Source: Acidihalobacter aeolianus (GTDB taxonomy: Bacteria > Pseudomonadota > Gammaproteobacteria > DSM-5130 > Acidihalobacteraceae). From it: DNA of 24,000 nt. The position numbers and the translations under genes were made by a program. Shown here piece by piece: positions 2,296 to 20,423 of this stretch. Where the stretch lies: the NCBI RefSeq assembly GCF_001753165.1, contig NZ_CP017448.1, positions 490,462 through 514,461 on the forward strand, given 5' to 3'. The stretch's first letter is position 1. Every line of letters begins with the position of its first letter. The notes under the pieces were generated by a model that was not told where the DNA came from, ran no database searches, and worked only from the letters and a program-made list of their open reading frames with translations.

Positions 2296-2317
2296 GATGC
2301 ACCTCCGTAAAGGCCAT

Positions 2318-2337
2318 ATGTAGTTAAGTTACTACAT
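2318..2337. promoter_or_regulatory. Candidate VapB operator (7-bp perfect inverted repeat)
   Basis: atgtagt-taagtt-actacat lies 23 nt upstream of the vapB start codon. Confidence 0.45.
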
Positions 2338-2664
2338 GCCTATTTGGATGTCTATGGGCTGTTGAGCATGCTTATCGTGCAGCTCCGGCAAGGTGAAGTG
2401 CTGGGATGGCCGTGAAAAGCCATTCGCGCGCTGGCAACCAAATCCAGTAAGAAATCCGCAGCTTAAGGCGTATGAAACCATCCGCCGTTTCCCACTGTGG
2501 TCCCGGCAGTCATGCGCGTAATGCGATGCAAGGCCGTTACGCCTTCGGCAGAATCATCTTGCTCTGTAATTGGCTCAGGATTTGAGTCGATTAAGTACGT
2601 TATCCGGCTCACAAAATTGCAGTGCTGTCCTGCAGAAATGTTCCAGCCTTTGCAGCAGCCCCCC

Positions 2665-4044: not shown

Positions 4045-4337
4045 TCGCCGTGGCCGGAAAGCAGGTTGTCGATCTCGCACATGAGGTATTCGTTGTCGCC
4101 GACGTTGCGCGCCACTTCGATGATGTCTGCGTAGCTGTGGTTGTGCAGGTCGAAGCTGAGCTTGTCGACGCGGCTCTTGTCGTAGAGCAGCTCCAGCAGC
4201 AGGATCACCCGCGGCGGATGGTCGCCGGTATCCGCAGCGATCCGAATCTTGGATACGACGCGCAGGTGCGCATCGATCTGGTTGATGAAATGCAGGGCGG
4301 AGAGTTCGTCGATCTCCTGCTGAGTGAACATGTGCAT
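4041..4337 (-). CDS. Hypothetical small protein (98 aa), translationally coupled to the Fe-S protein
   Basis: The ORF starts MHMFTQQEIDEL and has non-GC-biased, protein-like composition. Its stop overlaps the downstream ATG. I do not recognise the family. Confidence 0.55.
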   Translation of the reverse strand: MHMFTQQEIDELSALHFINQIDAHLRVVSKIRIAADTGDHPPRVILLLELLYDKSRVDKLSFDLHNHSYADIIEVARNVGDNEYLMCEIDNLLSGHGE

Positions 4338-4455
4338 GGGTGTCTCGGAATTCCTGACGATATCGGCCGCGCCACGGCCAGCGGACGGGCAGCATCGCGC
4401 CGCGCCGTTGCCTGGGAACGGCCGGCGGCGATGGTCGGCTGCGGGCACGATGCGC

Positions 4456-4821
4456 CTAGACCGCCTGCAGCAGGCGGGGCTCGGTGTTGATCGCGCCGGC
4501 GCGGCCCCAGGCGGTGATCGCCTCGACGAACCAGCGCGAGTCGGTGGGGTGCGGGCGCAGCACGTCGCACTCGGCATACAGGCTGCCGTCGGCGTTGACC
4601 ACCAGCTCGCCGCAGCGGTAGCCCTCGGCGTTACGCCACTCCATTACCAGCGCCATCGAGCCGTCGGCCGGGTCGCGGCGCAGGGAGGGGGTGCCGGCCT
4701 CCCAGGCCGGGGCGAAGAAACCCAGCGATCCCAGGCGGCCGGCGGCGCGTTCCAGCTCCCGCAACACCTCGATGCCGAGGGGGCGCAGCGCTTCCAGCCG
4801 CCGATCGAGCTCGCTGAGCAT
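4456..4821 (-). CDS. Hypothetical protein (121 aa)
   Basis: The ORF starts MLSELDRRLEAL. Its ATG overlaps the ferredoxin TGA by 1 nt (TGATG). I do not recognise the family. Confidence 0.55.
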   Translation of the reverse strand: MLSELDRRLEALRPLGIEVLRELERAAGRLGSLGFFAPAWEAGTPSLRRDPADGSMALVMEWRNAEGYRCGELVVNADGSLYAECDVLRPHPTDSRWFVEAITAWGRAGAINTEPRLLQAV

Positions 4822-5147
4822 CACCAGATCTCCGAGGGCACCAGCAGCCGTTCGACCGGCTTGCCACCGAGCAGGTGGCTGTCGATGATCTCGGCCACGT
4901 CTTCCTTCTTCAGCCCGCCGTACATCATGCCCTCGGGATAGACCAGCAGGTTGGGGCCGGAATCGCACGGGCCGAGGCAGCCGGTGCCGGTCACCTGAAT
5001 CCCCTGGGCCGCCAGCTCGCGGCTCTGCGACTGGGACAACAGTTCGTCGAACACGGCCTGGCAGCCCTTGGCGCCGCAGGAGCCGCGGGGATGGCCCGGT
5101 GGACGGGACTGTACGCAGACGAATACGTGTTTGGCGGGTCTTGGCAT
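4821..5147 (-). CDS. Thioredoxin-like [2Fe-2S] ferredoxin
   Basis: It has HVFVCVQSRPPGHPRGSCGAKG and TGCLGPCDSGPNLLVYPEGMMYG. This is the Cys spacing and VYP..(W/M)Y signature of the Trx-like 2Fe-2S ferredoxin family. The ATG at 5147 is preceded by ggag. Confidence 0.8.
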   Translation of the reverse strand: MPRPAKHVFVCVQSRPPGHPRGSCGAKGCQAVFDELLSQSQSRELAAQGIQVTGTGCLGPCDSGPNLLVYPEGMMYGGLKKEDVAEIIDSHLLGGKPVERLLVPSEIW

Positions 5148-5341
5148 GGCACTCACTCCGGAACGGGATGGATTTCGCAGGCAAACTCGATGGCAATCGG
5201 AGAGCAAGCGACGTGCCACAGCTAAGCGATTGATTTTCGGTGGAGCGGGCGGAGCGGGTCTGTAGCAAACGGAACAATCGACCCGGCGAGCGGGGTAAAC
5301 GGACCAACGCGGATGGCGTTGTGGGCGGGGGCCCTGAAAGG

Positions 5342-5371
5342 GGCGCCGAGCATCGGTCGATGCTCGGCGCC
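5342..5371 (-). terminator. Hairpin downstream of the TonB-dependent receptor gene
   Basis: Perfect 13-bp stem ggcgccgagcatc / gatgctcggcgcc with loop ggtc, 17 nt past the stop. On the minus strand it is followed only by ccctttc, a weak U-tract. Confidence 0.5.
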
Positions 5372-5387
5372 AGGGTGTGGCGCAGAA

Positions 5388-7721
5388 CTAGAAGCTTGCG
5401 GTGACCGTCAGATAGAGGCTTCTCGGCGCACCGGGGTTGGCGATGATGTACCCGGTGGAGGTGGTGCCGAAGTACCCGCCGCTGGAGATGTATTCCGTGG
5501 AATTGTATTTCTTGTCCAGCAGATTCAGGACGCGGAGGGAAACGGTCGCGTACTTGAGCCCGGGAATCAGGTGATTGAAAACCCGGGTGTCATCGGAAAT
5601 CGACAGATTCACGAGGTTATAGGCCGGGGTTTGCTGGTTCGTCGGCGCGCCGTTGTTGTTGTCCCACAAATAACTGTGGCCCGTGTACTGATCCCACAGC
5701 GTGGTGGTGATCGCCGAGGTCGAGAGATACCACTTGTAGCTGGCGCCGGCGTTGAACGTGGTCGAGGGCGAATTCGAGACCGGGTAGCCGTTGTAATAGG
5801 TATTGTTGGTGGTCGAGAAGAACGAATCCCAGTTGCTCTTGAGCCAGCCGAAATTGGCAAAACCGGACCAGTGCGTATCGAGGTCGCCGGAAAATTGCGC
5901 ATCCACGCCCTGCAGGGTCGCGGCACCGTAGCCGAAGGTGGTGACCGGGCTGCCGGCGATGTTACGCGGGATGGTCTGATGATCCATCTTGGTGTGGAAA
6001 TATTCGAGCGACGCCGTCATCCGCTTGAGCCCGAGAACGTGCTCGCCCGCAAAACGCCAGCCCAGGTCGTACGTCGCCGCCCTGACGGGCTGCAGGGTGC
6101 TGATGTCGATCGGGTAATTGTCGTAATTTCCCGCCGTGGGGTTCTGGTAGGCAATGCCGTAATTGGCGAATACCGCCATGCCCTTCGAAAGCTTCCAGTT
6201 GATGCCGATGGAGGGTTCGGTCTTGAGGAAATTGCTGGAAGCGTTCGGGTTGGTGTCGTAGCTGAAGTTGGGGTCGGTGGGCACGCCGTTCGGATAGAGG
6301 TGGAGCGTTTCGGTGTAGCTGTTGTTCACCCAGTCCGTCTGGAAGCCGTTCACGCTGATGCCCGGCACGATCTTGAGCGAGGGCGTGAGCTTGATGGCAT
6401 CCTGAATGAATGCGGAGGAATAGGTGCTGTAGGTCGTGTTGAAATAAACCGCGGCGGGATTGTAATTGTGATAACCCAGGGTTGGCGCGTACCCCAGATA
6501 ATTGCTGCGAGCCTTGGCCATGATCAGCCAGCCGCCGAAGCTGACCAGGTTGGTGTCGCCGATGGCTTGATCGAAAACGACCTTGTCTCCCAGGTTGTAG
6601 GAATGTTCGTGGTAGTTCTCGACGTTCGTTGTCGAGCCGGCATCGTAGCCCGTGTTCACGCGGTGGTGATAAATGTTGCCGTTGCGGAACCAGATGCTGT
6701 TCGAGAGCCTGAGCGTCGGCGACAGATCCAGATGCAGATGCGACCACGCCATGTAGTCCTTGACGTAGTTGTGCTTCCACCAGACCGATTGCGGCAGCGC
6801 CGAATAGAATCCGGTCGTCTGCTGGCTGTACAGGGGGCCGCTCCCGTTCAAGCCGTCGACATGAATCTCGCTATTGGGCACGAGTGGGATCATGTTGGGA
6901 CGGAGTTCGTCGTTGTTGATCGCGTAGGCGCCCGCGCTGAACGATCCGCCGGCAAAGGTTTTTTTGGTCTTCACATAGAGCTGATAGGTGTTGGACGGCC
7001 AGACGTCCGACGTCTTGCGGATCGAATGACTGCCGGCATGGGCGAGCCCGATCACGGTTGACCAGCCGTCGATTTCACCTGTGTTGTGCACGGCGGAAAT
7101 CACATTGGTGTCGAAGCTGCCGCCTGACAGGCTGATCTGGGTATTGGCGTGTGCGGTCGGCTGAACGGGAATGAAATTGATGGTGCCGCCCAGGCTGTCG
7201 TACCAGTGGGTGTCGGGATTGCCTGGACCTTGTATGACATTGGTGCCCGCCATCAGGCTGCCAATGGGCACTTCAGGAGAGTGCCAGCCGGTGCCCTGGT
7301 TGAGGCTGTTCAGCGGGATGCCGTCGAGTTCGGTGGTGATGGCGTTGGTTTCCAGATCGCCGGGGATGCTGTTCCAACCGACTTTCAAGCCGCGCATCGA
7401 GATTGTGGAGCGGGAGGAAACGCTGCTGGCGTTATAACTGCTGATTTCGACGTTGGGCAGGATGCTGAGCGCCTGCATGCCGCCGGCATCGGGACCGAAC
7501 AGGGAAATGCTGCTCTTGGATACGGTTTTGACCGTTTGCGTTGTGGCCAGCTTCTTTTTCTCGGTCATGACCGAGCTGTCCGAAGATCGCTCTTGAGAAT
7601 TCTTCTTCACGTTGGCGTTGACGGTGCCGAGATTCATGACGCCGGCAGCGTGTGCGGCCAACGGGCAAATCAATGCGGATGCAATCGCGGCCGCGACTGC
7701 ACTTCGTTTCAACGATTTCAC
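5388..7721 (-). CDS. TonB-dependent outer-membrane receptor
   Basis: 777 aa. It has a signal peptide (...ICPLAAHA/AG), a plug-like region (SMRGLKV...IQGPG), a long Tyr/Asn/Gly-rich beta-barrel and a C-terminal ...LTVTASF. The start is GTG, preceded by aggagag. Confidence 0.9.
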   Translation of the reverse strand: MKSLKRSAVAAAIASALICPLAAHAAGVMNLGTVNANVKKNSQERSSDSSVMTEKKKLATTQTVKTVSKSSISLFGPDAGGMQALSILPNVEISSYNASSVSSRSTISMRGLKVGWNSIPGDLETNAITTELDGIPLNSLNQGTGWHSPEVPIGSLMAGTNVIQGPGNPDTHWYDSLGGTINFIPVQPTAHANTQISLSGGSFDTNVISAVHNTGEIDGWSTVIGLAHAGSHSIRKTSDVWPSNTYQLYVKTKKTFAGGSFSAGAYAINNDELRPNMIPLVPNSEIHVDGLNGSGPLYSQQTTGFYSALPQSVWWKHNYVKDYMAWSHLHLDLSPTLRLSNSIWFRNGNIYHHRVNTGYDAGSTTNVENYHEHSYNLGDKVVFDQAIGDTNLVSFGGWLIMAKARSNYLGYAPTLGYHNYNPAAVYFNTTYSTYSSAFIQDAIKLTPSLKIVPGISVNGFQTDWVNNSYTETLHLYPNGVPTDPNFSYDTNPNASSNFLKTEPSIGINWKLSKGMAVFANYGIAYQNPTAGNYDNYPIDISTLQPVRAATYDLGWRFAGEHVLGLKRMTASLEYFHTKMDHQTIPRNIAGSPVTTFGYGAATLQGVDAQFSGDLDTHWSGFANFGWLKSNWDSFFSTTNNTYYNGYPVSNSPSTTFNAGASYKWYLSTSAITTTLWDQYTGHSYLWDNNNGAPTNQQTPAYNLVNLSISDDTRVFNHLIPGLKYATVSLRVLNLLDKKYNSTEYISSGGYFGTTSTGYIIANPGAPRSLYLTVTASF

Positions 7722-7877
7722 CGGAGCTCTCCTAATATTTTTGATGTTGTTGCATGAAGACTGGCCGTTCGGAATTTAAAGGCTGACTTCAGTGTGCATC
7801 CGGGGTTAGCGGATGTCCGCGCATGGTGGACTCGGCTCCGTGAATAATTGGTAGCAGGGAAGTGAACTAATTATTTA

Positions 7878-7918
7878 TTGACATTAACATTTGGTAATTC
7901 ATAACAATTAGTTATTGA
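7878..7918 (+). promoter_or_regulatory. Candidate sigma70-type promoter with overlapping near-palindrome
   Basis: TTGACA (7878-7883), a 16-nt spacer, then CATAAC (7900-7905). The near-palindrome tcATAACaattaGTTATtga (7899-7918) overlaps the -10 element. The site lies in the AT-rich divergent region between the receptor and DUF1810 genes. Confidence 0.3.
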
Positions 7919-8012
7919 TATTGAGTCGATAAGTAATTAGCAGTTGGGTTTGATGTGCAAGCGAAATTAATCACTAATTATCCGGCAATGAGCTGCGCGG
8001 CAAGTAGACGGT

Positions 8013-8459
8013 ATGAGTCTCGGGCGCATGCGCGCTGACCTGCAGCGCTTCCTCGACGCCCAGACCGGGATCTACGACGCGGCGCTGGCCGAGCTGCGGC
8101 ACGGCCGGAAGACGGGACACTGGATGTGGTTCGTGTTCCCTCAGGTCGTGGGGCTGGGTGCGAGCGTGACGAGCGTGCGCTATGCCATCCGCGATCTTGC
8201 CGAGGCCGAGGCGTAGCTGGCTCATCCGCTGCTCGGGGTACGGCTGGTCGACTGTACCGAGGCCGTGCTGGGACATGCGGGTATTGCGGCCGAGGCTGTT
8301 TTCGGCTACCCCGACGTGCTCAAGTTCCGCTCCTGCATGACCCTGTTCGAGTGCGTCGCCGCGCCGGGGAACGTGTTCTCCCGGGCGCTGGAGAACTTCT
8401 ACGCCGGGCAGCGCGACGAGCGCACGCTGGCGTTGCTCGGCGGCGAGCGGGAACGCTAG
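8013..8459 (+). pseudogene. DUF1810-family gene interrupted by an in-frame TAG
   Basis: Track ORFs 8013-8216 and 8265-8459 are in the same frame. Joined, they read ...HWMWFVFPQ...DLAEAEA*LAHPLLGVRL...FGYPDVLKFRSCMTLF..., which is the DUF1810 pattern. The TAG at 8214-8216 sits where the family has Tyr (A-Y-L-x-H-P). Confidence 0.8.
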
Positions 8460-8465
8460 CCGCGA

Positions 8466-8675
8466 TCAGTCGCCGGCCGTATCGGCCTCGCGCCGGTAGT
8501 CGCCGTAGGGCTTGTCGGCTGCCTGCATGCATTGCGCCTGTTGCTCCTGGGAGGGCATGTTCAGGCAGCGGTTGCGCTGGTAGGCCTGCCCGCTGCCGTA
8601 GAGCTGCTCGGGCGTGCAGGCGGAGCACAGGGCGAGCAGCGCGATGGCGAGGGCGGCGGTCAGGGATTTGTGTAT
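8466..8675 (-). pseudogene. Small lipoprotein/secreted-protein-like ORF lacking a canonical start (ATA where ATG is expected)
   Basis: Minus-strand frame reads (ATA)HKSLTAALAIALLALCSACTPEQLYGSGQAYQRNRCLNMPSQEQQAQCMQAADKPYGDYRREADTAGD*, a signal-peptide-like N-terminus plus a Cys-rich mature part. There is no ATG, GTG or TTG between the upstream in-frame TAG and the hydrophobic segment. Confidence 0.4.
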
Positions 8676-8843
8676 GGTGAGTTTCCAGCGGGAGTGTCGG
8701 TGTGGGCCGGGGGGAAAGGCCGCGTTCCGCTAGCGGACTTTACGCCCGGGCGCGGTGCTTGGCGAATGCCGCCCCGCGCTACCGCGCGCGCCGCATCCGC
8801 GACATACTAATCCGGCGATAAGACAAGGGAATGCCGCACCGTC

Positions 8844-9701
8844 ATGAAGCCGAATGCCCGCCTCTCGTCCACGGCCGATGCCGTTCTCGGCTCGCCGGCG
8901 TGCGATCTGGCGCGGTCGCGCGTGATGGGCGCCGATTCCGGAGGGGGCGGACCCGAACTGCCGCCGCTGCATGTGCGCCGCTACGGCGAGGCGGGTCCGG
9001 TGGTGTTCGTCCTGCACGGCGGCCCGGCCGCGGCCGGGAACGCGGCGCCGATCGCCCGCGGCCTGTCGGAGTCGTTCCGCGCGATCGAGCCGTTCCAGCG
9101 CGGCAGCGGGGACGAGCCGCTGACGGTGGCGCGGCACGTGGCGGATCTGGACGCGCTGGTGCGTGCGACGGATTCGCCGGGCAGGCCGGTCGTGGTCGGG
9201 GAGTCCTGGGGCGCGATGCTCGCGCTCGCCTATGCGGCCGCCCATCCCGAGGCATTGAGTGCGGTGGTGCTCGTGGGCTGCGGCACCTTCGACCCGGCTT
9301 CCCGCGCACGCATGCACGAGCTCATCGCGCAGCGTCGCGCGGCAGCGCGCGATGCGTACGATTACGATGCCGAGCCGGCCGAAGATCTGGCGCTGCCCTT
9401 CGACGAGCGGGCGCACAGCGAGACCTGGAACGATATGCTGGAGGCGCAGGCGCGCGGCGTCTACCCGGCTGCGTTCGCCGCCATCGATCTGCCGGTACTG
9501 ATGATCCACGGGGCGTACGATCCCCATCCGGGCCAAATGATCCACCGGGTGCTCGCGCAGTACATGCCCAGGATCGAATATCACGAACTGACGGACTGCG
9601 GGCATAGTCCGTGGCTCGAAAGACACGCCAGGGCGGCGTTTTTCGCGAAACTGTCGGTGTGGTTGGGCGAACAGTTCGGCATTCCGGTGATCGAGCGGTA
9701 G
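8844..9701 (+). CDS. Alpha/beta-fold hydrolase
   Basis: It has an HGGP oxyanion-type motif, the nucleophile elbow GESWG, and a C-terminal D...GH (LTDCGHSPW). An alternative start lies at 8925. Confidence 0.8.
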   Translation: MKPNARLSSTADAVLGSPACDLARSRVMGADSGGGGPELPPLHVRRYGEAGPVVFVLHGGPAAAGNAAPIARGLSESFRAIEPFQRGSGDEPLTVARHVADLDALVRATDSPGRPVVVGESWGAMLALAYAAAHPEALSAVVLVGCGTFDPASRARMHELIAQRRAAARDAYDYDAEPAEDLALPFDERAHSETWNDMLEAQARGVYPAAFAAIDLPVLMIHGAYDPHPGQMIHRVLAQYMPRIEYHELTDCGHSPWLERHARAAFFAKLSVWLGEQFGIPVIER

Positions 9702-9797
9702 CCGATCGATGATTTCGGCCTGCGCGCGCATTCCGCGAAATGCGCCGGTCAGAGAGTCGGTGCAAAATCCAGGGAAGCGGAGGCCCCGGGACACGAC

Positions 9798-10325
9798 ATG
9801 AACGACCGAATCCAGTATCTCGACCAGTTCTGGCTCAGAATCGAACAGGCAGTTCCCGCGGTCATCGCGGGTATCCTGATTTTTCTGGTGTTTCTGACGG
9901 CGGCCATTATAGCCAGAAGGCTGTTGAGGCGACTCGCCGGGCGGGTCAAGGCCGACAAGCGTCCCCTGGCCGGGCTGGCCGGCGAAACGGTGTACTACAC
10001 GGGGCTGGTGATCGGTTCGATTACCGGACTCGGAACCATGGGGATCGATGTCTCCGCCCTGATCGCCGGTCTTGGGCTGAGCGGATTCGCGCTGGGGTTT
10101 GCCCTGCGCGATGCGGTATCCAACTTGATTGCCGGTATTTTGATCCTGGTGTACCAACCCTATCGATATGGCGACAAGATATCCGTGGCCGGCAACAGCG
10201 GTGTGGTTTCGGATATCAATTTCCGCTACACGGTGCTGGTGGGCGAGGATGGCAGCACGATACACGTCCCCAACGGCACCATGTTCAGCAACAGCGTCGT
10301 GGTGGCGCCGCACACCGATAAATAG
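9798..10325 (+). CDS. Mechanosensitive ion channel family protein (short MscS-like)
   Basis: It has TM helices and a pore-helix-like segment LIAGLGLSGFALGFALRDAVSNLIAGILIL, followed by the beta-domain start GDKISVAGNSGVVSDI...TIHVPNG. At 175 aa it lacks the usual C-terminal domain. Confidence 0.7.
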   Translation: MNDRIQYLDQFWLRIEQAVPAVIAGILIFLVFLTAAIIARRLLRRLAGRVKADKRPLAGLAGETVYYTGLVIGSITGLGTMGIDVSALIAGLGLSGFALGFALRDAVSNLIAGILILVYQPYRYGDKISVAGNSGVVSDINFRYTVLVGEDGSTIHVPNGTMFSNSVVVAPHTDK

Positions 10326-10407
10326 AATGCATATTTATCGGCATGAAAGGCAGCGCATGAAGGTGCCAGGTCGATAGATCGATATTCGCGGACGTTCGGT
10401 CGATTTC

Positions 10408-10947
10408 ATGGAAAACATTCAGCTCGTGCATGACGATCACCACGGGGAACTGCGCCGTTTCCCTCTGAGCCTCCTCGTCCATGATATGGCGGCGCCGGAA
10501 AACGTGGGCAGTCTGTTCCGGCTGGCCGACGCGCTCGGCGTCGAGAAACTGTACCTGACCGGCACCACGCCATTGCCGCCGAACAGGAAAATCAGAAAAA
10601 CCTCCCGCGCCGCCGAAAAATACGTGCCCCACGAGTACGCGACCGACCCGCTCGCCGTGGTGGGAAAGTTGCAGGCAGATGGCTATCGCGTCGTCAGCCT
10701 GGATCTGACTACTGCGAGTCTGGACCTGGCCGTGCTGCCCGTTTCCAGCGGAGACAGGATATGCCTGGTGCTGGGTTCTGAAAATGCGGGAGTCAGTCAG
10801 GCGCTTTTGGATGCCTCCGATTTTTCCGTGCACATCCCCATGCGTGGCCTAAATTCGTCCATGAACGTGGCGATGGCCTGTGCAATCGCGGCGTACGAAA
10901 TCATCGGGATGTGTGCGGACGAAACGGGAATGGATTCGGGTAAGTAA
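10408..10947 (+). CDS. TrmH/SpoU-family RNA 2'-O-methyltransferase
   Basis: The SpoU motifs are present: PENVGSLFRLADALGV, LVLGSENAGVS and IPMRGLNSSMNVAMACAIAAYE. Confidence 0.8.
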   Translation: MENIQLVHDDHHGELRRFPLSLLVHDMAAPENVGSLFRLADALGVEKLYLTGTTPLPPNRKIRKTSRAAEKYVPHEYATDPLAVVGKLQADGYRVVSLDLTTASLDLAVLPVSSGDRICLVLGSENAGVSQALLDASDFSVHIPMRGLNSSMNVAMACAIAAYEIIGMCADETGMDSGK

Positions 10948-11122
10948 CGCTGCCGGGTTCGCATTGAGCATGATTTTCCTTATGGGGTGAAACGTCGCTT
11001 GGTCTGATGCCGGCAGGTATTGAACCTGCGTGATCCACTTCCGTGCGTGCAATATCTGGCAGTGGTATTCGCAGGCATGCGCAAGATATCCTTGTCCGCC
11101 TCGCCCCCTGTGAGTGATCGCT

Positions 11123-13226: not shown

Positions 13227-15473
13227 ATGGGAAATTACTCGAAGAAATCAGCAGGAAAAATTCGGCAGTCTCGTTCGCAAATTCCGGCGGCCGGGAAGGT
13301 TCTGGCGACCTCGCTGGTCGTTTCAGCGGCGGCCCTATCCGGTCGTGCCATGGCGGCAACACCCTACATATCGATACCGACCGTGACGGTCAACCAGTTC
13401 GATCTGACGAACCCGATCCTGGGTGCGCAGACGCTGGGCCCATCCCAGGTTGCAAAGTACGGCCTGAAAACCAGCAATACCGCGGATATTCTCGACGGCA
13501 TTCTCGGCGGCAGCGTGTTCAAGACCGGCGGCGTATCCGGGTTTCCCGTCGTTCACGGCCTGATGGACGACCAGCTGCACGTGTCCTACGGCGGGATGCA
13601 GCTCAATTCGGCCTGCCCGAACCACATGAATCCGATCCTTTCCTATCTCTTCCCGAGCCAGGTCGGTGCGGTCACGGCCTACACCGGCATCGTGCCGGTC
13701 AGCGTGGACGGCAACAGTATCGGCGCCTCGGTCGTGGTACATCCGGCGCCGCCCAAGTTCGCCATGCCGGGCAAGACGCGGGTCAGCGGCAGCGTCGGCG
13801 GCTACTACCGCAGCAACGGTTCCGCCACGGGCGGACATCTGGCTGCGAGCATAGCCAATGATGCCTTCAGCATGAAATACAGCGGCGACGTTTCGCACGC
13901 TTCCGACTACAAGGCAGGGGGCGATTTCCATCCGTCGGGTCCGGCGGCGATGGGACGCAGTTCGATCGGCGGCGACGTGGTCGGCTCGTCCGCCTACAGC
14001 ACCAGCAATCAGCAGATTCAGTTCGCCTACCGCCATGGGAGCCAACTGGCCGACCTGTCGGTGAACCTGCAGGACATTCCGTACGAGTACTATCCCAATC
14101 AGCGCATGGACATGGTGGAGAACAAGAGCACCTTGATCCATTTCAATTACCGCGACCGCTTCGACTGGGGCAACGTCAAGCTGCACCTGTACCATCAGGA
14201 TATCCATCACACCATGGATTTCGGCAGCGACAAGCAGTACATGTACGGCACCACCTCAGGCATGCCGATGAAGTCGCACGGCCATATCGACGGTGCCAAG
14301 CTCGACGGCACGATTCATCTCGACAGCGCCAACCTGCTGCGTACCGGCCTGCTGTTCCATTCGTTCCGCCTCAACGACTACTGGCCGCCTTCGGGTACCG
14401 GCATGATGGCGCCGAACACCTTCGACAACATCAACGACGGTCATAGCAACCGCTACGACGCCTACGTCGAATGGCGCGGCCAGTGGTCGTCGCAGTGGAG
14501 CACGCTGATGGGCGTGCGCAGCGACACCGTCGAGCAGAATGCCGGCGAAGTGCATGGCTATAACATGATGTACAACATGCAGGCGGCGGCGTTCAATGCG
14601 CAACCGCACAAGAAGACCGACCGCAACTGGGACTGGAGCCTGCAGGCAAAATTCCAGCCGACCGCGATGCAGAAATACACCTTCGGTGTGATGCGCCAGG
14701 AGCGCTCGCCCAATCTGTATCAGCGCTATACCTGGTCCTCGATGCCGATGGTCGCGGTGATGAACAACCTGGTCGGCGACGGCAACGGCTACGTGGGCAA
14801 CCTGAACCTCAAGCCCGAAGTCGCCTATACCGCTGTCCTCAGCGGCGAATGGGCCAGCATCAACCACGGACTGTGGAAAATCCGCGCCGATGCCTACCTG
14901 ACCCAGATTCACGACTACATCGGCGAGCAGTGCGCGCCCGGCACCACCTGCCAGGCCGGCAAATTCAACGTGCTGCAATACGTCAACCAGCAGGCGCGCA
15001 TGTCGGGTGCGGACGCGTCCGGCAAGGTGCTGCTGGCGCAGACGCGGACCGCGGGCGAATTTTTCCTGAACGGAAAGCTGAGCTACATCCATGCGCGCAA
15101 TACCGAGACGCACGACGGCCTGTTCGGCATCGCGCCCTGGCAGGGCAAGGTCGAGCTTGCCCAGAACACGGCACACTGGGACAACGCGGTCGATGTGCAG
15201 TTCGTCGGCGCGAAAACGAACGTGTCCTCGATTCAGAGCGAACCGCAGACCAAGGGCTACACGATCGTCAATTTGCACGCCGCCTACAAAACCGGCAATG
15301 TGACGATCCGGGCGGGAATCGATAACGTTTTCAATCGTCTCTACTACAATCCACAAAACGGCGTGTATGTGGGTCAGGGCATGACCATGATGCTCAACGG
15401 CATCCCGGCGGGAATCACGGTCCCAGGCCCCGGTCGGTCGTTCAATATCGGCTTCGACGCACATTTCGCGTAA
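13227..15473 (+). CDS. TonB-dependent copper receptor (OprC/NosA-like)
   Basis: 748 aa. It has a signal peptide ...GRAMA/ATP, a TonB-box-like IPTVTV and a beta-barrel. It carries CPNHM (Cys130...Met134, DNA 13614-13628) and HTM (His328-x-Met330, DNA 14208-14216). This matches the CxxxM + HxM copper site described for Pseudomonas OprC at nearly the same positions. Confidence 0.8.
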   Translation: MGNYSKKSAGKIRQSRSQIPAAGKVLATSLVVSAAALSGRAMAATPYISIPTVTVNQFDLTNPILGAQTLGPSQVAKYGLKTSNTADILDGILGGSVFKTGGVSGFPVVHGLMDDQLHVSYGGMQLNSACPNHMNPILSYLFPSQVGAVTAYTGIVPVSVDGNSIGASVVVHPAPPKFAMPGKTRVSGSVGGYYRSNGSATGGHLAASIANDAFSMKYSGDVSHASDYKAGGDFHPSGPAAMGRSSIGGDVVGSSAYSTSNQQIQFAYRHGSQLADLSVNLQDIPYEYYPNQRMDMVENKSTLIHFNYRDRFDWGNVKLHLYHQDIHHTMDFGSDKQYMYGTTSGMPMKSHGHIDGAKLDGTIHLDSANLLRTGLLFHSFRLNDYWPPSGTGMMAPNTFDNINDGHSNRYDAYVEWRGQWSSQWSTLMGVRSDTVEQNAGEVHGYNMMYNMQAAAFNAQPHKKTDRNWDWSLQAKFQPTAMQKYTFGVMRQERSPNLYQRYTWSSMPMVAVMNNLVGDGNGYVGNLNLKPEVAYTAVLSGEWASINHGLWKIRADAYLTQIHDYIGEQCAPGTTCQAGKFNVLQYVNQQARMSGADASGKVLLAQTRTAGEFFLNGKLSYIHARNTETHDGLFGIAPWQGKVELAQNTAHWDNAVDVQFVGAKTNVSSIQSEPQTKGYTIVNLHAAYKTGNVTIRAGIDNVFNRLYYNPQNGVYVGQGMTMMLNGIPAGITVPGPGRSFNIGFDAHFA

Positions 15474-15527
15474 CGCCTTCACGCGGGACCGCAAACGCGG
15501 TCCCGCGGGATGGAGGGGAGCAACCTG

Positions 15528-15560
15528 GCAGGACCGTCGGCCGCGGTCCTGCTTTTTTTT
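15528..15560 (+). terminator. Intrinsic terminator of the copper-receptor gene
   Basis: Stem gcaggaccg (15528-15536) / cggtcctgc (15544-15552), followed by T8 (15553-15560). An 11-bp GC hairpin with no U-tract precedes it (cgcgggaccgc/gcggtcccgcg, 15482-15507). Confidence 0.8.
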
Positions 15561-15562
15561 AT
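15555..15562. repeat. Target-site duplication, left copy (TTTTTTAT)
   Basis: This 8-mer is identical to 20342-20349 and directly abuts the cassette tip. Confidence 0.75.
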
Positions 15563-15587
15563 GGGTATCCAAAATTAGTGGTTGAAG
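15563..15587 (+). repeat. Terminal inverted repeat, left
   Basis: GGGTATCCAAAATTAGTGGTTGAAG. It matches the reverse complement of the right end at 21 of about 26 aligned positions (my count). The first 11 nt are identical. Confidence 0.75.
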
Positions 15588-15688
15588 ATGACAGGATCTT
15601 TCAACGTAAAGTGGTGCCGTATTTGGTTGAAGCGGCCAAGCTATGAATGGGTGATTGAGTTATGGACGGCTGCTTTTCATTTGGATGA

Positions 15689-17757
15689 GTGCGTACTTTC
15701 GACCCTGGTCGGCCAGTCGCGGATCGATGACGTGCTGTCTGTTCCAGCCCCGACAGCGGCCGTTCAACGCCTAAGCTCACCGGCGGTAATGGAGCGCAGC
15801 GGAATTGCCGTCCGGTGCAGCGCCTTGTGTACGCCCGACATGGGCATGAACTGATGGGGTGAAAGTCCCCTGTAGGAGTACCTGTATAGTCCATGCGGAC
15901 GAATGTAACTACTAGCCGACGGCAAGGGCAAACCCGCGAGGGGATGTCTGAAGGAAGCCCGAGCGCAAAGGTGCGAGCCGACGGACAGAAATCGCATAGA
16001 AGGCTCAGTCCCCGGGCGAGTCAGCACAAGATGACGAAGCCCGCCAGGTGCAGGGGATAGGGTAAATGCGGCGGTTGTGCACCGAAAGTTCATGTCCTTA
16101 TTCGGGGAGATCTGCCCGGCTTGCGGCCGTGTTGGGTTATGGGAGCCGGACTGAGGCCCACGGCGAAAGTCGTGGAACCGCCACCGGACCCTACTGTCCA
16201 TCTGCTGCAGCGCGTCTTGCGGTAACGCAGGACGTGACCGGGCAGAAGTCAGCAGAGGCCATAGTAGGCGGCCGGGGACGGAATCCCCGCCGGTGAAGGG
16301 CCGAACATGAGAAACCAAGGAGGAGCTGTGAGTCACTCGCCACCATCGCCGAACCCGACCGGGGGAGATGCGTCGCGGCGTGGTCTCACGCAGCCAGCCT
16401 TGCACGAGGAGTTGATGGCGCGGGTCCTGGACAGTGCGAACGTGCGACGCGCATGGAAGCGGGTAAAGACCAACAAGGGTGCTCCCGGCATCGACGGGAT
16501 GCGCATCGAGGACTTTCCCGAGTTCGCCCGGACGAACTGGCCACAAATCCGCCAGCAGCTTGCCAATGGTATCTATCAACCCCAGCCGGTGCGTCGGGTC
16601 TCGATCCCGAAGCCGAACGGGGGCGAGAGGTTGCTGGGGATCCCGACCGTAATCGACCGGGTGATCCAGCAGGCCATCGCGCAAGTACTCACGCCGATCT
16701 TCGATCCCGAGTTCTCGGAATCGAGCTTCGGCTTCCGACCGGGGCGCTCCGCCCACGGAGCAATCAGACAGGTACAAGGCCACATCAAGGCCGACTACCG
16801 CATCGCCGTCGACCTGGACTTGGCGAAATTCTTCGACAACGTCCGGCACGATATCCTTATGGTCAGAGTGGCCAGAAAGGTGCGCGACAAGCGGCTGCTG
16901 GCCCTGATCGGTCGCTACCTGCGGGCGGGTGTCCTGGTCGGGGAGTCCATCCAGGCAACGGAAATCGGCACGCCGCAGGGCGGGCCGCTCTCTCCGCTGC
17001 TGGCCAATATCCTTTTGGACGACCTTGACCGAGAACTGGACGGACGTGGCCACCGGTTTGCCCGCTACGCGGACGACCTGGTGATCCTCGTCAAGACTTT
17101 CAGAGCCGGAGAACGGGTGAAGGCGAGCGTGACCCGTTTCCTCACCCGAAAGTTGGCACTGGTGGTCAATGAGCAGAAGAGCCGGGTAGTGAAGACCAAC
17201 GACTGCACGTTTCTCGGGTTTACGTTTCGGGGAACGAAGCTGCGCTGGTCCGACCGCGCCTTCGAGGACTTCAGGCACCACGTCCGGCGATTGACCGGTC
17301 GTTCCTGGGGCGTCTCGATGGCATACCGATTCATGAAGCTCGCCCGGTACGTGCGAGGCTGGATGGGTTACTTCGGCATCTCGGATTACTACCGACCGCT
17401 CCCCGAGATCGACCATTGGCTGCGCCGCCGGGTGCGCATGTGCTACTGGAAACAGTGGCGCTATGTGCGCACCAAGGTCCGCCACCTGGTGGCCTTGGGG
17501 ACGTTCAAACGCCAAGCGATCCTGACGGCGCTCAGCAGCAAGAGCTACTGGCATCTATCCCGCACGCTGGCGACACAATCCGGAATGACGAATGAGTGGC
17601 TGAAACGCCAAGGGCTGATCGGTATCCGCGATCTGTGGATGAAAGCCCATGGCTATGCTTGATCTCCCTGTGTGCTTCTTTCTTATGAACCGCCTAGTGC
17701 GGACCCGCATGCTAGGTGGTGTGGGGAGGGCGGGCTAAACACCCGCCCTTACCCGAT
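15689..17757 (+). mobile_element. Bacterial group II intron (ORF-containing)
   Basis: The 5' end is GTGCG at 15689, about 620 nt of structured GC-rich RNA before the ORF. Domain V lies at 17689-17720: ACCGCCUAG/CUAGGUGGU stem, UG bulge, UGCG-GACC-CGCA. Domain VI lies at 17724-17754 with a bulged A at 17751, 7 nt before the proposed 3' end ...CCCGAU. Boundaries are approximate (+/- a few nt). Confidence 0.8.
16307..17662 (+). CDS. Group II intron reverse transcriptase/maturase (no endonuclease domain)
   Basis: RT motifs are present: KGAPGIDG, IPKPNGGERLLGIPTVIDRVIQQA, GFRPGRSAH, DLDLAKFFDNV, GTPQGGPLSPLLANILL and the catalytic YADD. A maturase/X region follows (RGWMGYFG) and the protein ends there, with no HNH/En domain. 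An in-frame GTG at 16328, behind aaggagg, is an alternative start. Confidence 0.9.
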   Translation: MRNQGGAVSHSPPSPNPTGGDASRRGLTQPALHEELMARVLDSANVRRAWKRVKTNKGAPGIDGMRIEDFPEFARTNWPQIRQQLANGIYQPQPVRRVSIPKPNGGERLLGIPTVIDRVIQQAIAQVLTPIFDPEFSESSFGFRPGRSAHGAIRQVQGHIKADYRIAVDLDLAKFFDNVRHDILMVRVARKVRDKRLLALIGRYLRAGVLVGESIQATEIGTPQGGPLSPLLANILLDDLDRELDGRGHRFARYADDLVILVKTFRAGERVKASVTRFLTRKLALVVNEQKSRVVKTNDCTFLGFTFRGTKLRWSDRAFEDFRHHVRRLTGRSWGVSMAYRFMKLARYVRGWMGYFGISDYYRPLPEIDHWLRRRVRMCYWKQWRYVRTKVRHLVALGTFKRQAILTALSSKSYWHLSRTLATQSGMTNEWLKRQGLIGIRDLWMKAHGYA

Positions 17758-17765
17758 TAGCCGTT

Positions 17766-18773
17766 TTATACATAGCCTGGTATTCGACGGTGCTTGTTTG
17801 CCATTCTTATGTATTCGATTCGTGGTCGCTGATTAGCGTCAAGCGGTAGATGAATTTTTTTGTCCAAAAATGACTTAAACTCCTTAATCCCACCATCCAG
17901 TTTATGTTGTTTTAGCTCATCTGCCTTTTCCGCATTTAGCCTCATCACATAGTTTTCATCGAGATAAATCAAGCAATTGTCGTATGCTCTATGAAATGTC
18001 GGAGATAGAGACATCCCATTTGTAACATGATCACTGCTATCTCCTGAAGGCACAGGTAGAATGTGAGCAGCATCCACAAGGCGCAATTGGAGTCTTGTAA
18101 CTGCACATCTGTTGTCATAGGCACTTAATACAATTTTTCTGAAGTTTGCGTCACGCGAGTACCTGCTGACATTTTCCACAATGAGTTTTCTTTTTGCCGT
18201 AAGTGATGAAATATCCTGCTCAGGGATCTCTTGTAACTCGACAGCCTTTGTTAGCAATTCTGTAAGATTGCTTTCAGCGCCATATAGATGCAACGGCTCG
18301 GCGTTCAGGCAATATGTTAGAAACTGATCTGGCCGAACCCCAATTGCTATTTCGTCATTATCTTTAGTGACGAATGAGAGACCATTTTGTAACGCCGAAT
18401 GTATCGCGGAGATTCCTATTTGAACTGAGGGAGACCCCGCAGTAAATGTGCTGTGTTTCTTTAAATCAAAGCCTGCAAACATCTTTAAATCTGGGTTATA
18501 GCCCATGAGTACAGTCAATCCGCTTGGGTTCTTCTGTAATGGTGAAGACACAGATGTCATTTGTATTCTGTACTCATCGGGCAATGAAACCCGACCGCCG
18601 TGGGTGAGCGTCCACATGTAAACCCAAAGGCTGTATGTGTTTCCTAAAAAGCTAACGATAAACTTGCGAGGATGTGTTCTAACAGTCTCAGAGACATAAG
18701 CAGCCACGCCGCCAGATTGCTGAATCGCGTCAATTAGTTCGTTGACAATCAGTGTAGGGCTAACGGCTGGCAT
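17766..18773 (-). CDS. HNH-family nuclease, putative Type II restriction endonuclease
   Basis: The C-terminus has an HNH (HNH_2-like) signature: DNRCAVTRLQLRLVDAAHILPV...HVTNGMSLSPTFHRAYDNCLIYLD. I do not recognise the N-terminal ~220 aa. I chose the ATG at 18773 (preceded by aaggaag), which overlaps the MTase 3' end by 14 nt. The track start at 18866 would overlap by 107 nt. Confidence 0.7.
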   Translation of the reverse strand: MPAVSPTLIVNELIDAIQQSGGVAAYVSETVRTHPRKFIVSFLGNTYSLWVYMWTLTHGGRVSLPDEYRIQMTSVSSPLQKNPSGLTVLMGYNPDLKMFAGFDLKKHSTFTAGSPSVQIGISAIHSALQNGLSFVTKDNDEIAIGVRPDQFLTYCLNAEPLHLYGAESNLTELLTKAVELQEIPEQDISSLTAKRKLIVENVSRYSRDANFRKIVLSAYDNRCAVTRLQLRLVDAAHILPVPSGDSSDHVTNGMSLSPTFHRAYDNCLIYLDENYVMRLNAEKADELKQHKLDGGIKEFKSFLDKKIHLPLDANQRPRIEYIRMANKHRRIPGYV

Positions 18774-19776
18774 CTTTTTCTTCCTTTGTGCTTTGTTTGG
18801 CGGGACGGGCCTTTCCCCCGTCAACTGGTAACGGCTCTTCATTATCAACGCCATTCCATAATGCACCAGGATGAGAAAGATTGTATGTAGGAATTTTTCT
18901 TTCTAACGACTTGACCGGGAATCTCAACCTTCCGCCCTCAATGTATTCTTTCTCTAACTCAACGCAAACCCATTTTCGTTCAAGCCTTTCGGCGGCCTCC
19001 CCCGTAACACAAGACCCACCAAATGGATCAAATACAAGATCACCTTTGTCTGACAACATGCGTATGAAATATTCCGGCAAATCAACAGGGAATCTTGCTG
19101 GGTGTGGCTTAATTCCATTTTCTTTGCACTTGGTCAGATATGCGGAGTTGCTTTCAGTATTGGCAATTGCAATTAAATTTGGAGGAATAGAAGCGCCATT
19201 ATCTTTGGAAAATTTATCGCTAATATCGTGTCCGCTCGGGCGCATCTGGGCTTTGTACCCATTCTTTAGCAATCCCTTCATCGACTCACTATAAGGAACC
19301 AAAATCCTACGATTGCTTGCTTTCGGCCACGGTGTCTTTGATAGCCACCATACGCAATTTATGGCATCTTTGACCCTGATTCGCCTAATATTTACCCATT
19401 CTGCGGGGGTGGGTAATTTAGATGGGTTCCACCAGAAAAAATCTTGCGCCAGGTGAAATCCATACTCGCGACAAAGCATGATCATTAGCTCATAATGATA
19501 TAGTGATCTGGTTGGTTGCCCCGGTATCCACGCGCCACCAATATCTATTACGAGTGACCCGTCTTCTCGAAGGATTCTATGAAACTGTTCCGCAAAAGGG
19601 CGGAACCAATCCAAATATTCATGTGCATCTGCGTTGCCGTAGTCCTTCTTTCTCACGAGCCCAAATGGCGGAGATGTCATTATGAGATTAACTTCGCCGT
19701 CTCGCAGTGTAGGCATATACGCTAACGAGTCTGCGTGATAGATACTTCCAAATTGCGTTTTATAGAATTTCTTCAT
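18760..19776 (-). CDS. Beta-class amino DNA methyltransferase (N4-cytosine or N6-adenine)
   Basis: SPPF (motif IV) lies near the N-terminus (IMTSPPFGL) and the AdoMet motif I near the C-terminus (VFDPFGGSCVTGEAA). This is the beta permutation. SPPF is typical of N4mC enzymes such as M.PvuII, but N6A is not excluded. Confidence 0.85.
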   Translation of the reverse strand: MKKFYKTQFGSIYHADSLAYMPTLRDGEVNLIMTSPPFGLVRKKDYGNADAHEYLDWFRPFAEQFHRILREDGSLVIDIGGAWIPGQPTRSLYHYELMIMLCREYGFHLAQDFFWWNPSKLPTPAEWVNIRRIRVKDAINCVWWLSKTPWPKASNRRILVPYSESMKGLLKNGYKAQMRPSGHDISDKFSKDNGASIPPNLIAIANTESNSAYLTKCKENGIKPHPARFPVDLPEYFIRMLSDKGDLVFDPFGGSCVTGEAAERLERKWVCVELEKEYIEGGRLRFPVKSLERKIPTYNLSHPGALWNGVDNEEPLPVDGGKARPAKQSTKEEKDASR

Positions 19777-20315
19777 GGGTTCCTGATCTGTTTAGTTTTG
19801 TACGGCTAACAGTAAATATAGAGACCGATGGGTCCGGACATTCTTTAATATGGAGACGCGAGCGAATCGACTATAACCATTAGATTTCGTTACATCATGT
19901 TACCTCACATTTTTGTCTCTATATGCATGCATGAATACAGGGACACGCGGATGCACCCATGACTCCCATGCGCTATTGTTCGGTTTTTATCTACAGGAGC
20001 GATTCTCATGGGGTCAAATCCCACACCGTCTGTTTGATTTGGTCTCCATCGTTTGCCGCCGTCGGCATTACAACCCACTGTATCCACTGAGCTACCACTA
20101 CCAAATCCATTTTAGAACTGTATTGGGCTGGGATTCAGCACAAAGCAGCCTTTCATATGCCTGTTTCGGCAGACACCTGACCGGCCGGATGTGGTCGAAA
20201 GCACCAACCAGTTCAGACAAGCATCCACATAACGGACACTACCAGAATCAGCTATCTCCATCACAGACGTAGTCAACCACATAGTTAGAGATAGGGCCCG
20301 GTGATAACAGTTGGT

Positions 20316-20341
20316 GTTTCAATCAGATAATTTGGATACCC
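20316..20341 (-). repeat. Terminal inverted repeat, right
   Basis: The minus strand reads GGGTATCCAAATTATCTGATTGAAAC from the tip at 20341. Confidence 0.75.
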
Positions 20342-20349
20342 TTTTTTAT
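20342..20349. repeat. Target-site duplication, right copy (TTTTTTAT)
   Basis: This 8-mer is identical to 15555-15562. Confidence 0.75.
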
Positions 20350-20423
20350 CTGCGATACAGGACTGGGCGAAATGAGGCGCTCCCGGGGTAAGCTGTGAGG
20401 CCGCCCCAAGACCGGAGAGCACG

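Follow-up and report, generated by a model that had tools for sequence, protein, structure and literature searches.

How does a restriction-modification (R-M) system come to lie directly behind a TonB-dependent receptor gene (13227-15473) in Acidihalobacter aeolianus, and what kind of mobile DNA may have carried it there? In the 24,000-nucleotide stretch of DNA analysed here, hereafter the window, the first-pass annotation had proposed a cassette with insertion sequence (IS) ends, devoid of transposase, that delivers R-M genes into a transcription terminator. The element is a nesting of three layers, each of them a known kind of mobile DNA, and not a new kind of element (Table 1).

Table 1. 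Features of the element and of its insertion site, in window coordinates.
Feature	Position	Strand	Size	Remarks
Whole element	15563-20341		4779 bp	ISL3-ended, transposase-less
Left terminal inverted repeat (IRL)	15563-15586	+		GGGTATCCAAAATTAGTGGTTGAA
Right terminal inverted repeat (IRR)	20341-20318	-		GGGTATCCAAATTATCTGATTGAA
Target-site duplication, left copy	15555-15562		8 bp	TTTTTTAT
Target-site duplication, right copy	20342-20349		8 bp	TTTTTTAT
Left arm of the 737-bp backbone	15563-15767			IS end followed by some 135 nt of unassigned non-coding DNA
Right arm of the backbone	19810-20341		532 nt
Integron-type gene cassette	15768-19809	-	2113 nt without the intron	methyltransferase, HNH nuclease, attC
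M.PvuII-like N4-cytosine DNA methyltransferase	18760-19776	-	338 aa
Putative restriction endonuclease	17766-18773	-	335 aa	MTaX1 and HNH_2 domains; length counted from the ATG of homologues, reading frame open back to 18866
attC site	15762-15828 and 17758-17762	-	72 nt	67 nt, plus 5 nt beyond the intron
Group IIC-attC-type intron	15829-17757	+	1929 nt	open reading frame 16307-17662
Intrinsic terminator of the receptor gene	15527-15560	+		11-bp stem, then T8; terminator scan

In an ungapped sequence comparison, IRL and IRR match at 19 of 24 positions, the first 11 being identical, and each tip is directly touched by one of the two identical octamers. The inverted tips and identical flanks described earlier are thus real and lie where they had been placed in the sequence. 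Each end had also been said to carry TGGTTGA twice, at mirrored offsets. The offsets hold, at 16 for the tip-proximal sites of both ends and at 61 on the left (15624-15630) and 62 on the right (20279-20273) for the inner sites, but the right tip-proximal copy reads TGATTGA, TGGTTGA being found at the other three of the four sites. The second TGGTTGAA site of the left end spans 15624-15631.

The terminator of the receptor gene is the insertion target, and insertion into its T-tract with an 8-bp duplication is borne out. The proposal that deleting the element in silico restores this terminator needs a small correction: hairpin and T8 stand unbroken on the left of the insertion, so that there is nothing to restore. 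Without the intron, the interior has a G+C content of 41-47% compared to 57-72% in the flanks, in agreement with the AT-richer interior noticed at first. What had been described as a 565-bp non-coding arm is made of a 33-nt cassette leader and 532 nt of backbone; in the latter, about 400 nt (19810-20206) are unassigned, non-coding and single-copy, and the last 135 nt (20207-20341) are apparently repeated elsewhere in the host genome. The gene content is as first listed, namely a protein with HNH_2 and MTaX1 domains, an N6_N4 methyltransferase and a group II intron maturase, with neither transposase nor integrase. A Pfam profile search detected no transposase or integrase remnant inside the element, and ISL3 transposases, either full-length or as a C-terminal fragment, gave no tblastn match to it.

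Several comparisons support the assignment of the ends to the ISL3 family, and more precisely to its ISPpu12/ISPst2 branch. The window ends match the published ISPst2/CLJ-ISL3 repeats, which served for comparison (PMC7643977), at 19/24 and 18/24 positions, IRL matching the CLJ-ISL3 IRL at 19/24. In a metagenomic element (contig L025), an ISL3 transposase gene reads into the adjoining end, which agrees with the window IRL at 23/24 positions. Another contig (L011) encodes the C-terminal part of an ISL3 transposase (PF01610, 35.4 bits for a cut-off of 23), whose reading frame runs into the tip GGGTATCCAAATTAGCTGGTTGAA, and the second TGGTTGAA lies at offset 61. A complete 3965-bp element (L029) encloses between such ends an intact 445-aa ISL3 transposase (NF033550, 271 bits for a cut-off of 180) together with passenger genes. 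L011, L020, L025 and L037 all have the second, subterminal site at offset 60-62, and the flank is AT-rich in every relative retrieved. The earlier suggestion of the ISPpu12 branch is therefore upheld by published repeats as well as by such ends adjoining ISL3 transposase genes.

Imperfect terminal repeats of about 24 nt and an AT-rich 8-bp duplication are features of the ISL3 family found here, whereas the DDE_Tnp_ISL3 transposase of an autonomous member is missing between the ends; the element is thus an ISL3 derivative and not an IS. It shares with ISPst2, ISPpu12 and CLJ-ISL3 the 24-nt repeats GGGTAT...TGGTTGA, the AT-rich 8-bp duplication and the passenger genes that these elements tend to enclose (PMC7643977; PMC4133298). 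By contrast, these elements encode their own ISL3 transposase, to which ISPpu12 adds TnpR, and their passengers are metal or transport genes, whereas the window element has no transposase and its passenger is an integron cassette. Among the relatives retrieved, no autonomous partner had the same subterminal sequence, similarity stopping after 24-26 nt and the inner motif.

The R-M genes constitute the second layer. The methyltransferase is related to M.PvuII (E = 4e-108 against the structure PDB 1boo) and matches the PADLOC model MTase_II with 405 bits; for the nuclease, a structure search found no structurally solved relative. Both genes are adjacent and overlapping, and their pairing is kept in homologues; judged from domains and gene order, methyltransferase and putative nuclease would qualify as a Type II R-M pair. 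The pair is bounded by G|TTAGCC at the 5' side and G|TTGAAC at the 3' side and followed by an attC site with R'' = GGCTAAC, R' = GTTGAAC and a long stem of 16 bp with two bulged bases. This site was the top candidate in a scan for attC-like structures, with no second candidate within the element. It is nearly identical to the attC of homologous cassettes, and a site without intron on a Geoalkalibacter plasmid shares 92% identity with it.

In at least five independent cassette-array contexts, homology begins exactly at 19810/19809 and stops at the attC R' site; in contigs L050-L056, L059 and L060, identity extends from G|TTAGCC to this R' site and the flanks differ in each. These homologues present 83-90% nucleotide identity and 88% amino-acid identity, and the closest R-M homologues (95% amino-acid identity) lie in ordinary cassette arrays and not between ISL3 ends. 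One homologous array (L050) has clear attC sites and adjoins the gene of an integron integrase (TIGR02249, 429 bits). By its attC, its boundaries and its changing neighbours, the R-M pair is a bona fide integron gene cassette. An array downstream of intI/attI is lacking in the window: no intI and no second attC occur within its 24 kb, neither an attC nor a recognisable attI is present at the 5' cassette junction, and the cassette sits between the IS ends. The integron-cassette and attC nature of the R-M pair had been overlooked at first reading.

R-M and other defence cassettes of sedentary chromosomal integrons are likewise compact, two-gene, promoterless and provided with G|TTRRRY boundaries and an attC (bioRxiv 10.1101/2024.07.02.601686), and homologues of the window cassette occur in arrays adjoining intI (L050), as in such integrons. 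The window cassette differs in its location outside any integron and inside IS ends, with no 5' attC/attI.

The third layer is an intron that splits the attC. Its open reading frame encodes a reverse transcriptase/maturase with RVT_1 and GIIM domains (TIGR04416, 407 bits), and its RNA domains are recognised by RF02001 (135.8 bits) and RF01998 (70.2 bits). It is inserted at TTGT|T of the attC bottom strand, 8 nt from the stop codon of the HNH gene and in opposite orientation to the cassette genes; an intron-less form of this attC is present in contig L005. At the nucleotide level, the intron is 67-70% identical to introns in the attC of dfrA14, aadA6 and catB and 81% identical to a Methylocalor plasmid copy. 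Its plasmid relatives occupy the attC of these three cassettes antisense to their genes. Group IIC-attC introns insert in the attC bottom strand, antisense to cassette genes, and those of the S.ma.I2 type do so within a few nucleotides of the stop codon (PMC3001079), as seen here; the window intron differs from them in that its cassette lies outside any integron. Judged from target and similarity, it is an attC-targeting intron of the group IIC type and a probable member of the monophyletic IIC-attC clade. The first-pass annotation had missed this type.

A sibling of the element was found in another contig (L037, 757-1621, 865 bp). It is equally transposase-less, is flanked by a perfect 8-bp duplication AAAAAATT and carries a toxin-antitoxin cargo with a PemK/MazF toxin, its left end matching the window IRR at 23/24 positions. 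Together with the ends, the duplication and the absent transposase of the window element, this sibling sustains the initial reading of a transposase-less, IS-ended cassette carrying R-M genes. Logan assemblies use k = 31, a value on which the argument for multi-copy ends depends. Unitigs of this strain break off 30 nt (k-1) into IRL and at position 20236, and one of them (L006) terminates at 15592, exactly 30 nt inside the left repeat; these break points suggest that the host genome contains several copies of the ends. The cassette-bearing element was seen in one copy only, and no second copy or partner IS was retrieved; in a scan of species-representative genomes, which did not return the host genome, matches were essentially at chance level. 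As regards an empty site, one relative (L007) has the same terminator hairpin and T8 and the same cupin gene without the insertion, but a separate indel of 2.4 kb also distinguishes it from the window at this position, and a clean empty site was not retrieved.

Could such a configuration arise without transposition of the whole unit? The window is rich in imperfect inverted repeats with 70-80% identity, and T-rich octamers are low-complexity, so one could take the inverted and direct repeats for accidents of AT-rich DNA around an R-M island acquired by another route. This is hardly conceivable. A degenerate pattern of the repeat with up to 3 mismatches matches just the two ends in 24 kb, with 0 expected from 100 shuffles, and the combination of an inverted repeat matching at 19/24 positions or more with an 8-bp direct repeat touching it, present once in the window, never arose in 300 dinucleotide-preserving shuffles, which effectively refutes chance. 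Moreover, the tips match ISL3 ends of unrelated origin, down to the inner site at offset 61, and unitig ends agree with the element tip to the base. An unlikely scenario, of another order of plausibility, is that a MITE-like ISL3 backbone of about 737 bp entered the terminator first and the R-M cassette joined it later, in place, through an integron integrase (attC x GTT); were this true, the R-M system was not delivered by IS ends. It fits with a bona fide integron cassette whose G|TT junctions are intact and with a reconstructed pre-insertion junction, GTTGAAC, that is a valid GTTRRRY core. The intron is also multi-copy in the host, with a 3' flank common for 2 nt (TA), which suggests other attC-like targets in the genome. 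It is at odds with the lack of an integron integrase in the 24-kb window and with a Logan unitig (L001) that crosses the 19810 junction unbranched, so that an empty backbone copy is seemingly absent from the genome, as well as with the sibling, which bears cargo, lacks a transposase and has its own duplication.

Finally, the element may once have been an autonomous ISL3 transposon with passengers that inserted by itself and later lost its transposase gene, being now an immobile relic. In relatives with the same ends, passenger genes do accompany an intact transposase gene (L029; CLJ-ISL3, PMC7643977), and the repeated right end of 135 nt is close to the distance from tip to start codon in relatives (128-157 nt), consistent with removal of a transposase gene from its start codon onward. 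This history is nevertheless quite improbable: the 737-bp backbone retains no leftover transposase coding sequence, and mobilisation in trans is a more parsimonious explanation than the exact removal of a whole 1.3 kb, given the sibling with its perfect duplication.

We consider it probable that the element is a non-autonomous ISL3 derivative, i.e., a mobile insertion cassette, carrying an intron-invaded integron R-M cassette and pasted in trans, and we infer the following course of events. The R-M cassette must originally derive from an integron cassette pool, and the likeliest way into the backbone would be recombination by an integron integrase at a GTT site. A group IIC-attC intron would then have retrohomed into the attC bottom strand, splitting the attC hairpin and probably preventing excision of the cassette. 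Both ISL3 ends are retained, and in each the TGGTTGA sites, one next to the tip and one subterminal, are presumably bound by the transposase. A cognate ISL3 transposase acting in trans would have inserted the unit in the T-tract directly behind the hairpin of the TonB-receptor terminator, thereby duplicating TTTTTTAT. The promoterless cassette may be expressed from the right arm or from the IS end.

Mobile insertion cassettes such as MIC231/IS231 of Bacillus cereus possess IS ends and passenger genes and no transposase. The window element has the same characters, with IS-family inverted repeats, a target duplication, passengers and no transposase, and its mobility, like theirs, is presumed to occur in trans. 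In integron mobilisation units, or MITE-flanked integrons, two separate MITE copies flank an integron fragment. There too, non-autonomous IS-derived ends mobilise integron-derived DNA, whereas in the window one cassette lies in one element bounded by one pair of ends. The mobile insertion cassette concept is cited in PMC4133298, and no ISL3-family mobile insertion cassette with an R-M integron cassette as cargo was found in the searchable literature.

The first-pass annotation had considered R-M genes as cargo between IS ends to be rarely documented. However, transposon-like R-M units bordered by 8-bp direct repeats and imperfect inverted ones have been known since 2010 from Xanthomonas oryzae and Neisseria gonorrhoeae, and a trans-acting transposase was already raised as a possibility (Furuta et al., 2010; PMC2853133). 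These units resemble the window element as Type II systems with imperfect terminal repeats, an 8-bp duplication and no linked transposase; their repeats have no IS-family assignment and are unique in the genome, whereas the window ends are ISL3 and apparently multi-copy, around a cargo with integron-cassette structure (PMC2853133). The novelty is thus smaller than initially assumed. On the favoured explanation, the R-M system would have arrived together with the IS ends, and its nature as an integron cassette provides a second possible route by which it may have arrived.

The two tips of the 4779-bp element are inverted repeats of each other, identical at 19 of 24 positions without gaps and at all of positions 1-11, and each is adjoined by the same 8-mer TTTTTTAT (15555-15562 and 20342-20349), in agreement with the first-pass annotation save for its match count. 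The paired TGGTTGA copies that it placed at mirrored offsets were recovered at offsets 16 and 61-62 of each end, although the tip-proximal ones read TG(G/A)TTGA. A degenerate repeat pattern with up to three mismatches matched twice in the 24-kb window, at the two ends of the element, compared to none expected from 100 shuffles. Similarly, the window offers a single case of an inverted repeat of 19/24 or better bordered at both tips by one and the same 8-mer, and no such case arose in 300 dinucleotide-preserving shuffles; that these repeats arose by chance is effectively excluded. The interior is indeed AT-richer than its surroundings, with a G+C content of 41-47% outside the intron versus 57-72% in the flanks.

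Features of the element in the window, with their positions
Feature	Position	Strand or placement	Description
IRL (left terminal inverted repeat)	15563-15586	+	sequence GGGTATCCAAAATTAGTGGTTGAA
IRR (right terminal inverted repeat)	20318-20341	-	reverse complement is GGGTATCCAAATTATCTGATTGAA
Integron gene cassette	15768-19809	-	2113 nt minus intron; leader of 33 nt, no obvious promoter
Group II intron	15829-17757	in attC	3' end common to four relatives (...TACCCGAT then T); 5' end after TTGT

The predicted empty site reads GGTCCTGCTTTTTTTTATCTGCGATACAGGACTGGG, with a single TTTTTTAT. Deletion of the element had been said to restore a terminator for the TonB-dependent receptor gene; on the contrary, this terminator (hairpin and T8, 15527-15560) is still whole to the left of the insertion. 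Another TonB-dependent receptor gene lies at 5388-7721 on the minus strand, roughly 5.5 kb upstream of the gene with the targeted terminator. A promoter-like ATAACA-16-GATAAT (20304-20331, plus strand) in the right end faces outward to the cupin gene (20424), at a frequency not above that of shuffled sequence.

A related metagenomic contig (L007) presents the receptor gene, the terminator and the cupin gene as in the window and is devoid of the 4.8-kb element. It was not accepted as a clean empty site, since it carries another indel at this intergenic position, two ABC-transporter genes spanning 2.4 kb (2780-5170 of the contig) between terminator and cupin gene that are missing from the window (15553-15562, 20350-20362). 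Homology ends at most 2 nt from the left tip and restarts at a CTGCG..ACAG motif after the right copy of the duplication. The junctions of the two sequences have short CTGCG..ACAG and CAG motifs in common, which argues that the 2.4-kb difference is a separate indel.

The affiliation of the ends was sought by scanning sequence collections with the repeat pattern. Among species-representative genomes, six matches were obtained against an estimated nine or so expected by chance, and a single one, in a Gallionella MAG (L011), was genuine; the host genome was not among them. The metagenome scan gave 24 matches, mostly chance ones inside coding regions, the genuine ones being L026, L029, L032, L037 and L040, and the only match of the viral scan was due to chance. 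In the Gallionella sequence, an ORF reading towards the tip GGGTATCCAAATTAGCTGGTTGAA corresponds to the last 39 positions of Pfam DDE_Tnp_ISL3 (35.4 bits, cut-off 23), and a further TGGTTGAA is found at offset 61. Homologues of this fragment led to L025, where the end located 3' of an ISL3 transposase gene is GGGTATCCAAATTTAGTGGTTGAA, identical to IRL at 23 of 24 positions, and to five other sequences (L016, L020-L023) with GGGTAT... left ends 128-157 nt upstream of transposase start codons. A complete ISL3 element of 3965 bp with such ends is present in the metagenome contig Ga0105044_10005091 (L029, 865-4829); its intact transposase of 445 aa exhibits Zn_ribbon_ISL3, HTH_Tnp_ISL3 and DDE_Tnp_ISL3 domains (NCBIfam transpos_ISL3, 271 bits, cut-off 180), and among its passengers are a YhcG/DUF1016 PDDEXK nuclease and DUF2807 fragments. 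The sequences bordering this element, AAAATTTT and AAAAATTT, come close to a duplication without being identical. The window repeats are also identical at 19/24 and 18/24 positions to GGGTATCCGGAATTTCTGGTTGAT, one of the two repeats published, together with GGGTATACGGATTTAATGGTTGAT, for CLJ-ISL3, a passenger-carrying isoform of ISPst2 (PMC7643977). These transposase-linked ends, the CLJ-ISL3 matches and the AT-rich flanks seen in all relatives verify the resemblance to the ISPpu12/IS1396 branch of ISL3 that the first-pass annotation had proposed. On a Dyella plasmid (NZ_CP134868; L014, ~1300-1345), an ISStma11-like ISL3 copy directly follows a terminator-like hairpin and the 8-mer of the window duplication, TTTTTTAT, an arrangement hinting that this IS group prefers terminator T-tracts.

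The first-pass annotation was right that the element encodes neither transposase nor integrase, as none was detected across the whole element by Pfam, by tblastn with the full-length ISL3 transposase or a C-terminal fragment, or by tblastn with an integron integrase. Cargo-bearing elements that have these ends and no transposase do insert with duplications of their own, as attested by an 865-bp element in the metagenome contig VFQO010019759.1 (L037, 757-1621), whose left end matches IRR at 23 of 24 positions and which is bordered by a perfect 8-bp duplication, AAAAAATT. Its cargo consists of a PemK/MazF toxin gene preceded by a small ORF; it is a second addiction module between ISL3 ends.

The cargo of the window element is an integron gene cassette located outside any integron, a feature overlooked in the earlier annotation. 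When the intron is excised in silico, the sequence 3' of the HNH stop reads, on the gene strand, GGCTAAC-AAGGCGCTGCACCGGACGGCAATTCCGCTGCGCTCCATTACCGCCGGTGAGCTTAGGC-G|TTGAAC, and the R''/R' pair together with a 16-bp stem carrying two bulged bases identifies the site as an attC. Homologous pairs of methyltransferase and HNH genes, 88% identical in amino acids, were met in several metagenomic settings with varying neighbours; the similarity stops precisely at G|TTAGCCGTCAAAAC at the 5' boundary and at the G|TTA... of a near-identical attC at the 3' boundary. Alignment of the window with the nearest relatives (95% and 91% amino-acid identity) does not extend past 19810, and one of these relatives follows another cassette that has an attC of its own. 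Another homologue lies about 4 kb from a divergent integron integrase (TIGR02249, 429 bits, cut-off 265) on the 1.4-Mb contig ctg24211_848x_c (L050), in a chromosomal integron (1146-11000) with intI and an array that has several clear attC sites. Two consecutive R-M-like cassettes are found there, of which the first encodes an EcoRI-type methylase and a GmrSD/HNH protein and the second the PvuII-like methyltransferase and a truncated MTaX1 protein. The methyltransferase of the window is a close homologue of M.PvuII (PDB 1boo, E = 4e-108); the nuclease carries MTaX1 and HNH_2 domains, with no relative of solved structure. No attC was found in the cargo of L029, L037 or L016, so that cassette capture is not general among these relatives.

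An intron-less site on the Geoalkalibacter plasmid pGSUB1 (L005, 3001-3070), directly 3' of an unrelated methyltransferase gene, shares 92% identity with the 70 nt that adjoin the intron on its 5' side (15758-15828). Nearly the same attC (92% identity) follows a DUF4326 gene on the C. freundii plasmid pLNU-11 (L004, ~3650-3730). Such likeness of sites after unrelated genes in distant hosts suggests, from sequence comparison, a common cassette pool or attC type. Plasmid-borne relatives of the intron lie within the attC of dfrA14, aadA6 and catB cassettes, antiparallel to those genes, a placement in keeping with what has been published on group IIC-attC introns, whose target is the bottom strand of attC sites (PMC3001079). 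As the intron holds the two halves of the attC hairpin 1.9 kb apart, excision of the cassette by an integrase should be hindered. An exact-sequence look-up of the intron reverse transcriptase returned no record.

Removing the cassette in silico leaves a backbone of 737 bp (15563-15767 and 19810-20341) joined at GTTGAAC on the gene strand. The similarity of this backbone to retrieved sequences is confined to its terminal 24-26 nt and the inner motifs. The right arm contains no IntI remnant or attI-linked ORF, its ORF at 19913-20272 matches no family, and a scan with the real attC as positive control revealed no second attC upstream of the cassette or in the backbone. No minus-strand promoter that would convincingly serve the R-M genes emerged from a promoter scan, the counts being at or below chance, and none is clear in the backbone. 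A 19-nt palindrome-like repeat centred on ATGCATGCAT is present at 19914-19945, and a 10-bp inverted repeat, ATATAGAGAC and GTCTCTATAT, encloses some 90 nt immediately upstream of the junction with the cassette; neither structure is attC-like.

Logan contigs of run SRR9180443 match the window at 100% identity, and their breaks are informative on copy number in the host. One contig (L006) stops at 15592, exactly 30 nt within IRL, and another (L001) covers 17730-20236, unbroken across 19810. For these assemblies, which we take to use k = 31, such breaks are as expected if the left end (from 15563), the segment 20207-20341 and the intron (to 17759) are repeated, suggesting under this k that both ends recur in the host, the right one over its last 135 nt. 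This length is close to the tip-to-start-codon distance of autonomous relatives and suggests that the right end may be the transposase-proximal one, in which case the R-M genes would be oriented as the transposase gene would have been.

On balance, we regard as probable that a non-autonomous ISL3 derivative, with the cassette already aboard, was pasted by a trans-acting transposase into the T-tract behind the terminator hairpin, an insertion that would have duplicated TTTTTTAT. The element was seen as one copy only. The cassette itself would most likely have entered the backbone by integrase-mediated recombination at a GTT site; secondary-site insertions of cassettes are established for class 1 integrons. 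The backbone might instead have transposed empty and captured its cassette later in place, which we consider unlikely; the continuity of L001 at 19810 indicates that the right arm is single-copy over its inner 400 nt, and an empty copy of the backbone thus seems to be absent from the host. Finally, loss of the transposase gene after insertion of an autonomous, passenger-carrying element would start from an organization such as that of L029, and the 737-bp backbone holds no transposase remnants; we judge this course of events improbable.

Each layer of this structure is already known, namely passenger-bearing ISL3 elements, mobile insertion cassettes, integron cassettes for R-M or other defence systems (bioRxiv 10.1101/2024.07.02.601686) and IIC-attC introns. 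Carriage of R-M genes as passive cargo between IS ends had been presented as rarely documented: the IS ends are supported, but R-M systems within imperfect inverted repeats and 8-bp duplications, lacking a transposase, were described in 2010 by authors who brought up possible mobilisation in trans (PMC2853133). Those units had no known transposase, whereas the ends of the present one are assigned to ISL3. New are the link of such a unit to one particular IS family, the nature of its cargo as an integron cassette outside any integron, and the nesting of three layers. This provides a concrete IS-family assignment for R-M structures of this kind, and an integron cassette within transposon ends may bridge site-specific cassette exchange and transposition. 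A broader and rather doubtful extension is that transposase-less cassettes with ISL3 ends form a recurrent escape vehicle for addiction modules, here R-M and in L037 a MazF-type toxin-antitoxin: a cassette would enter the backbone GTT, the attC intron would lock it in, the IS end would drive its expression and a resident ISL3 transposase would spread it to terminator T-tracts. If true, integron cassettes would gain a second, integrase-independent means of movement.
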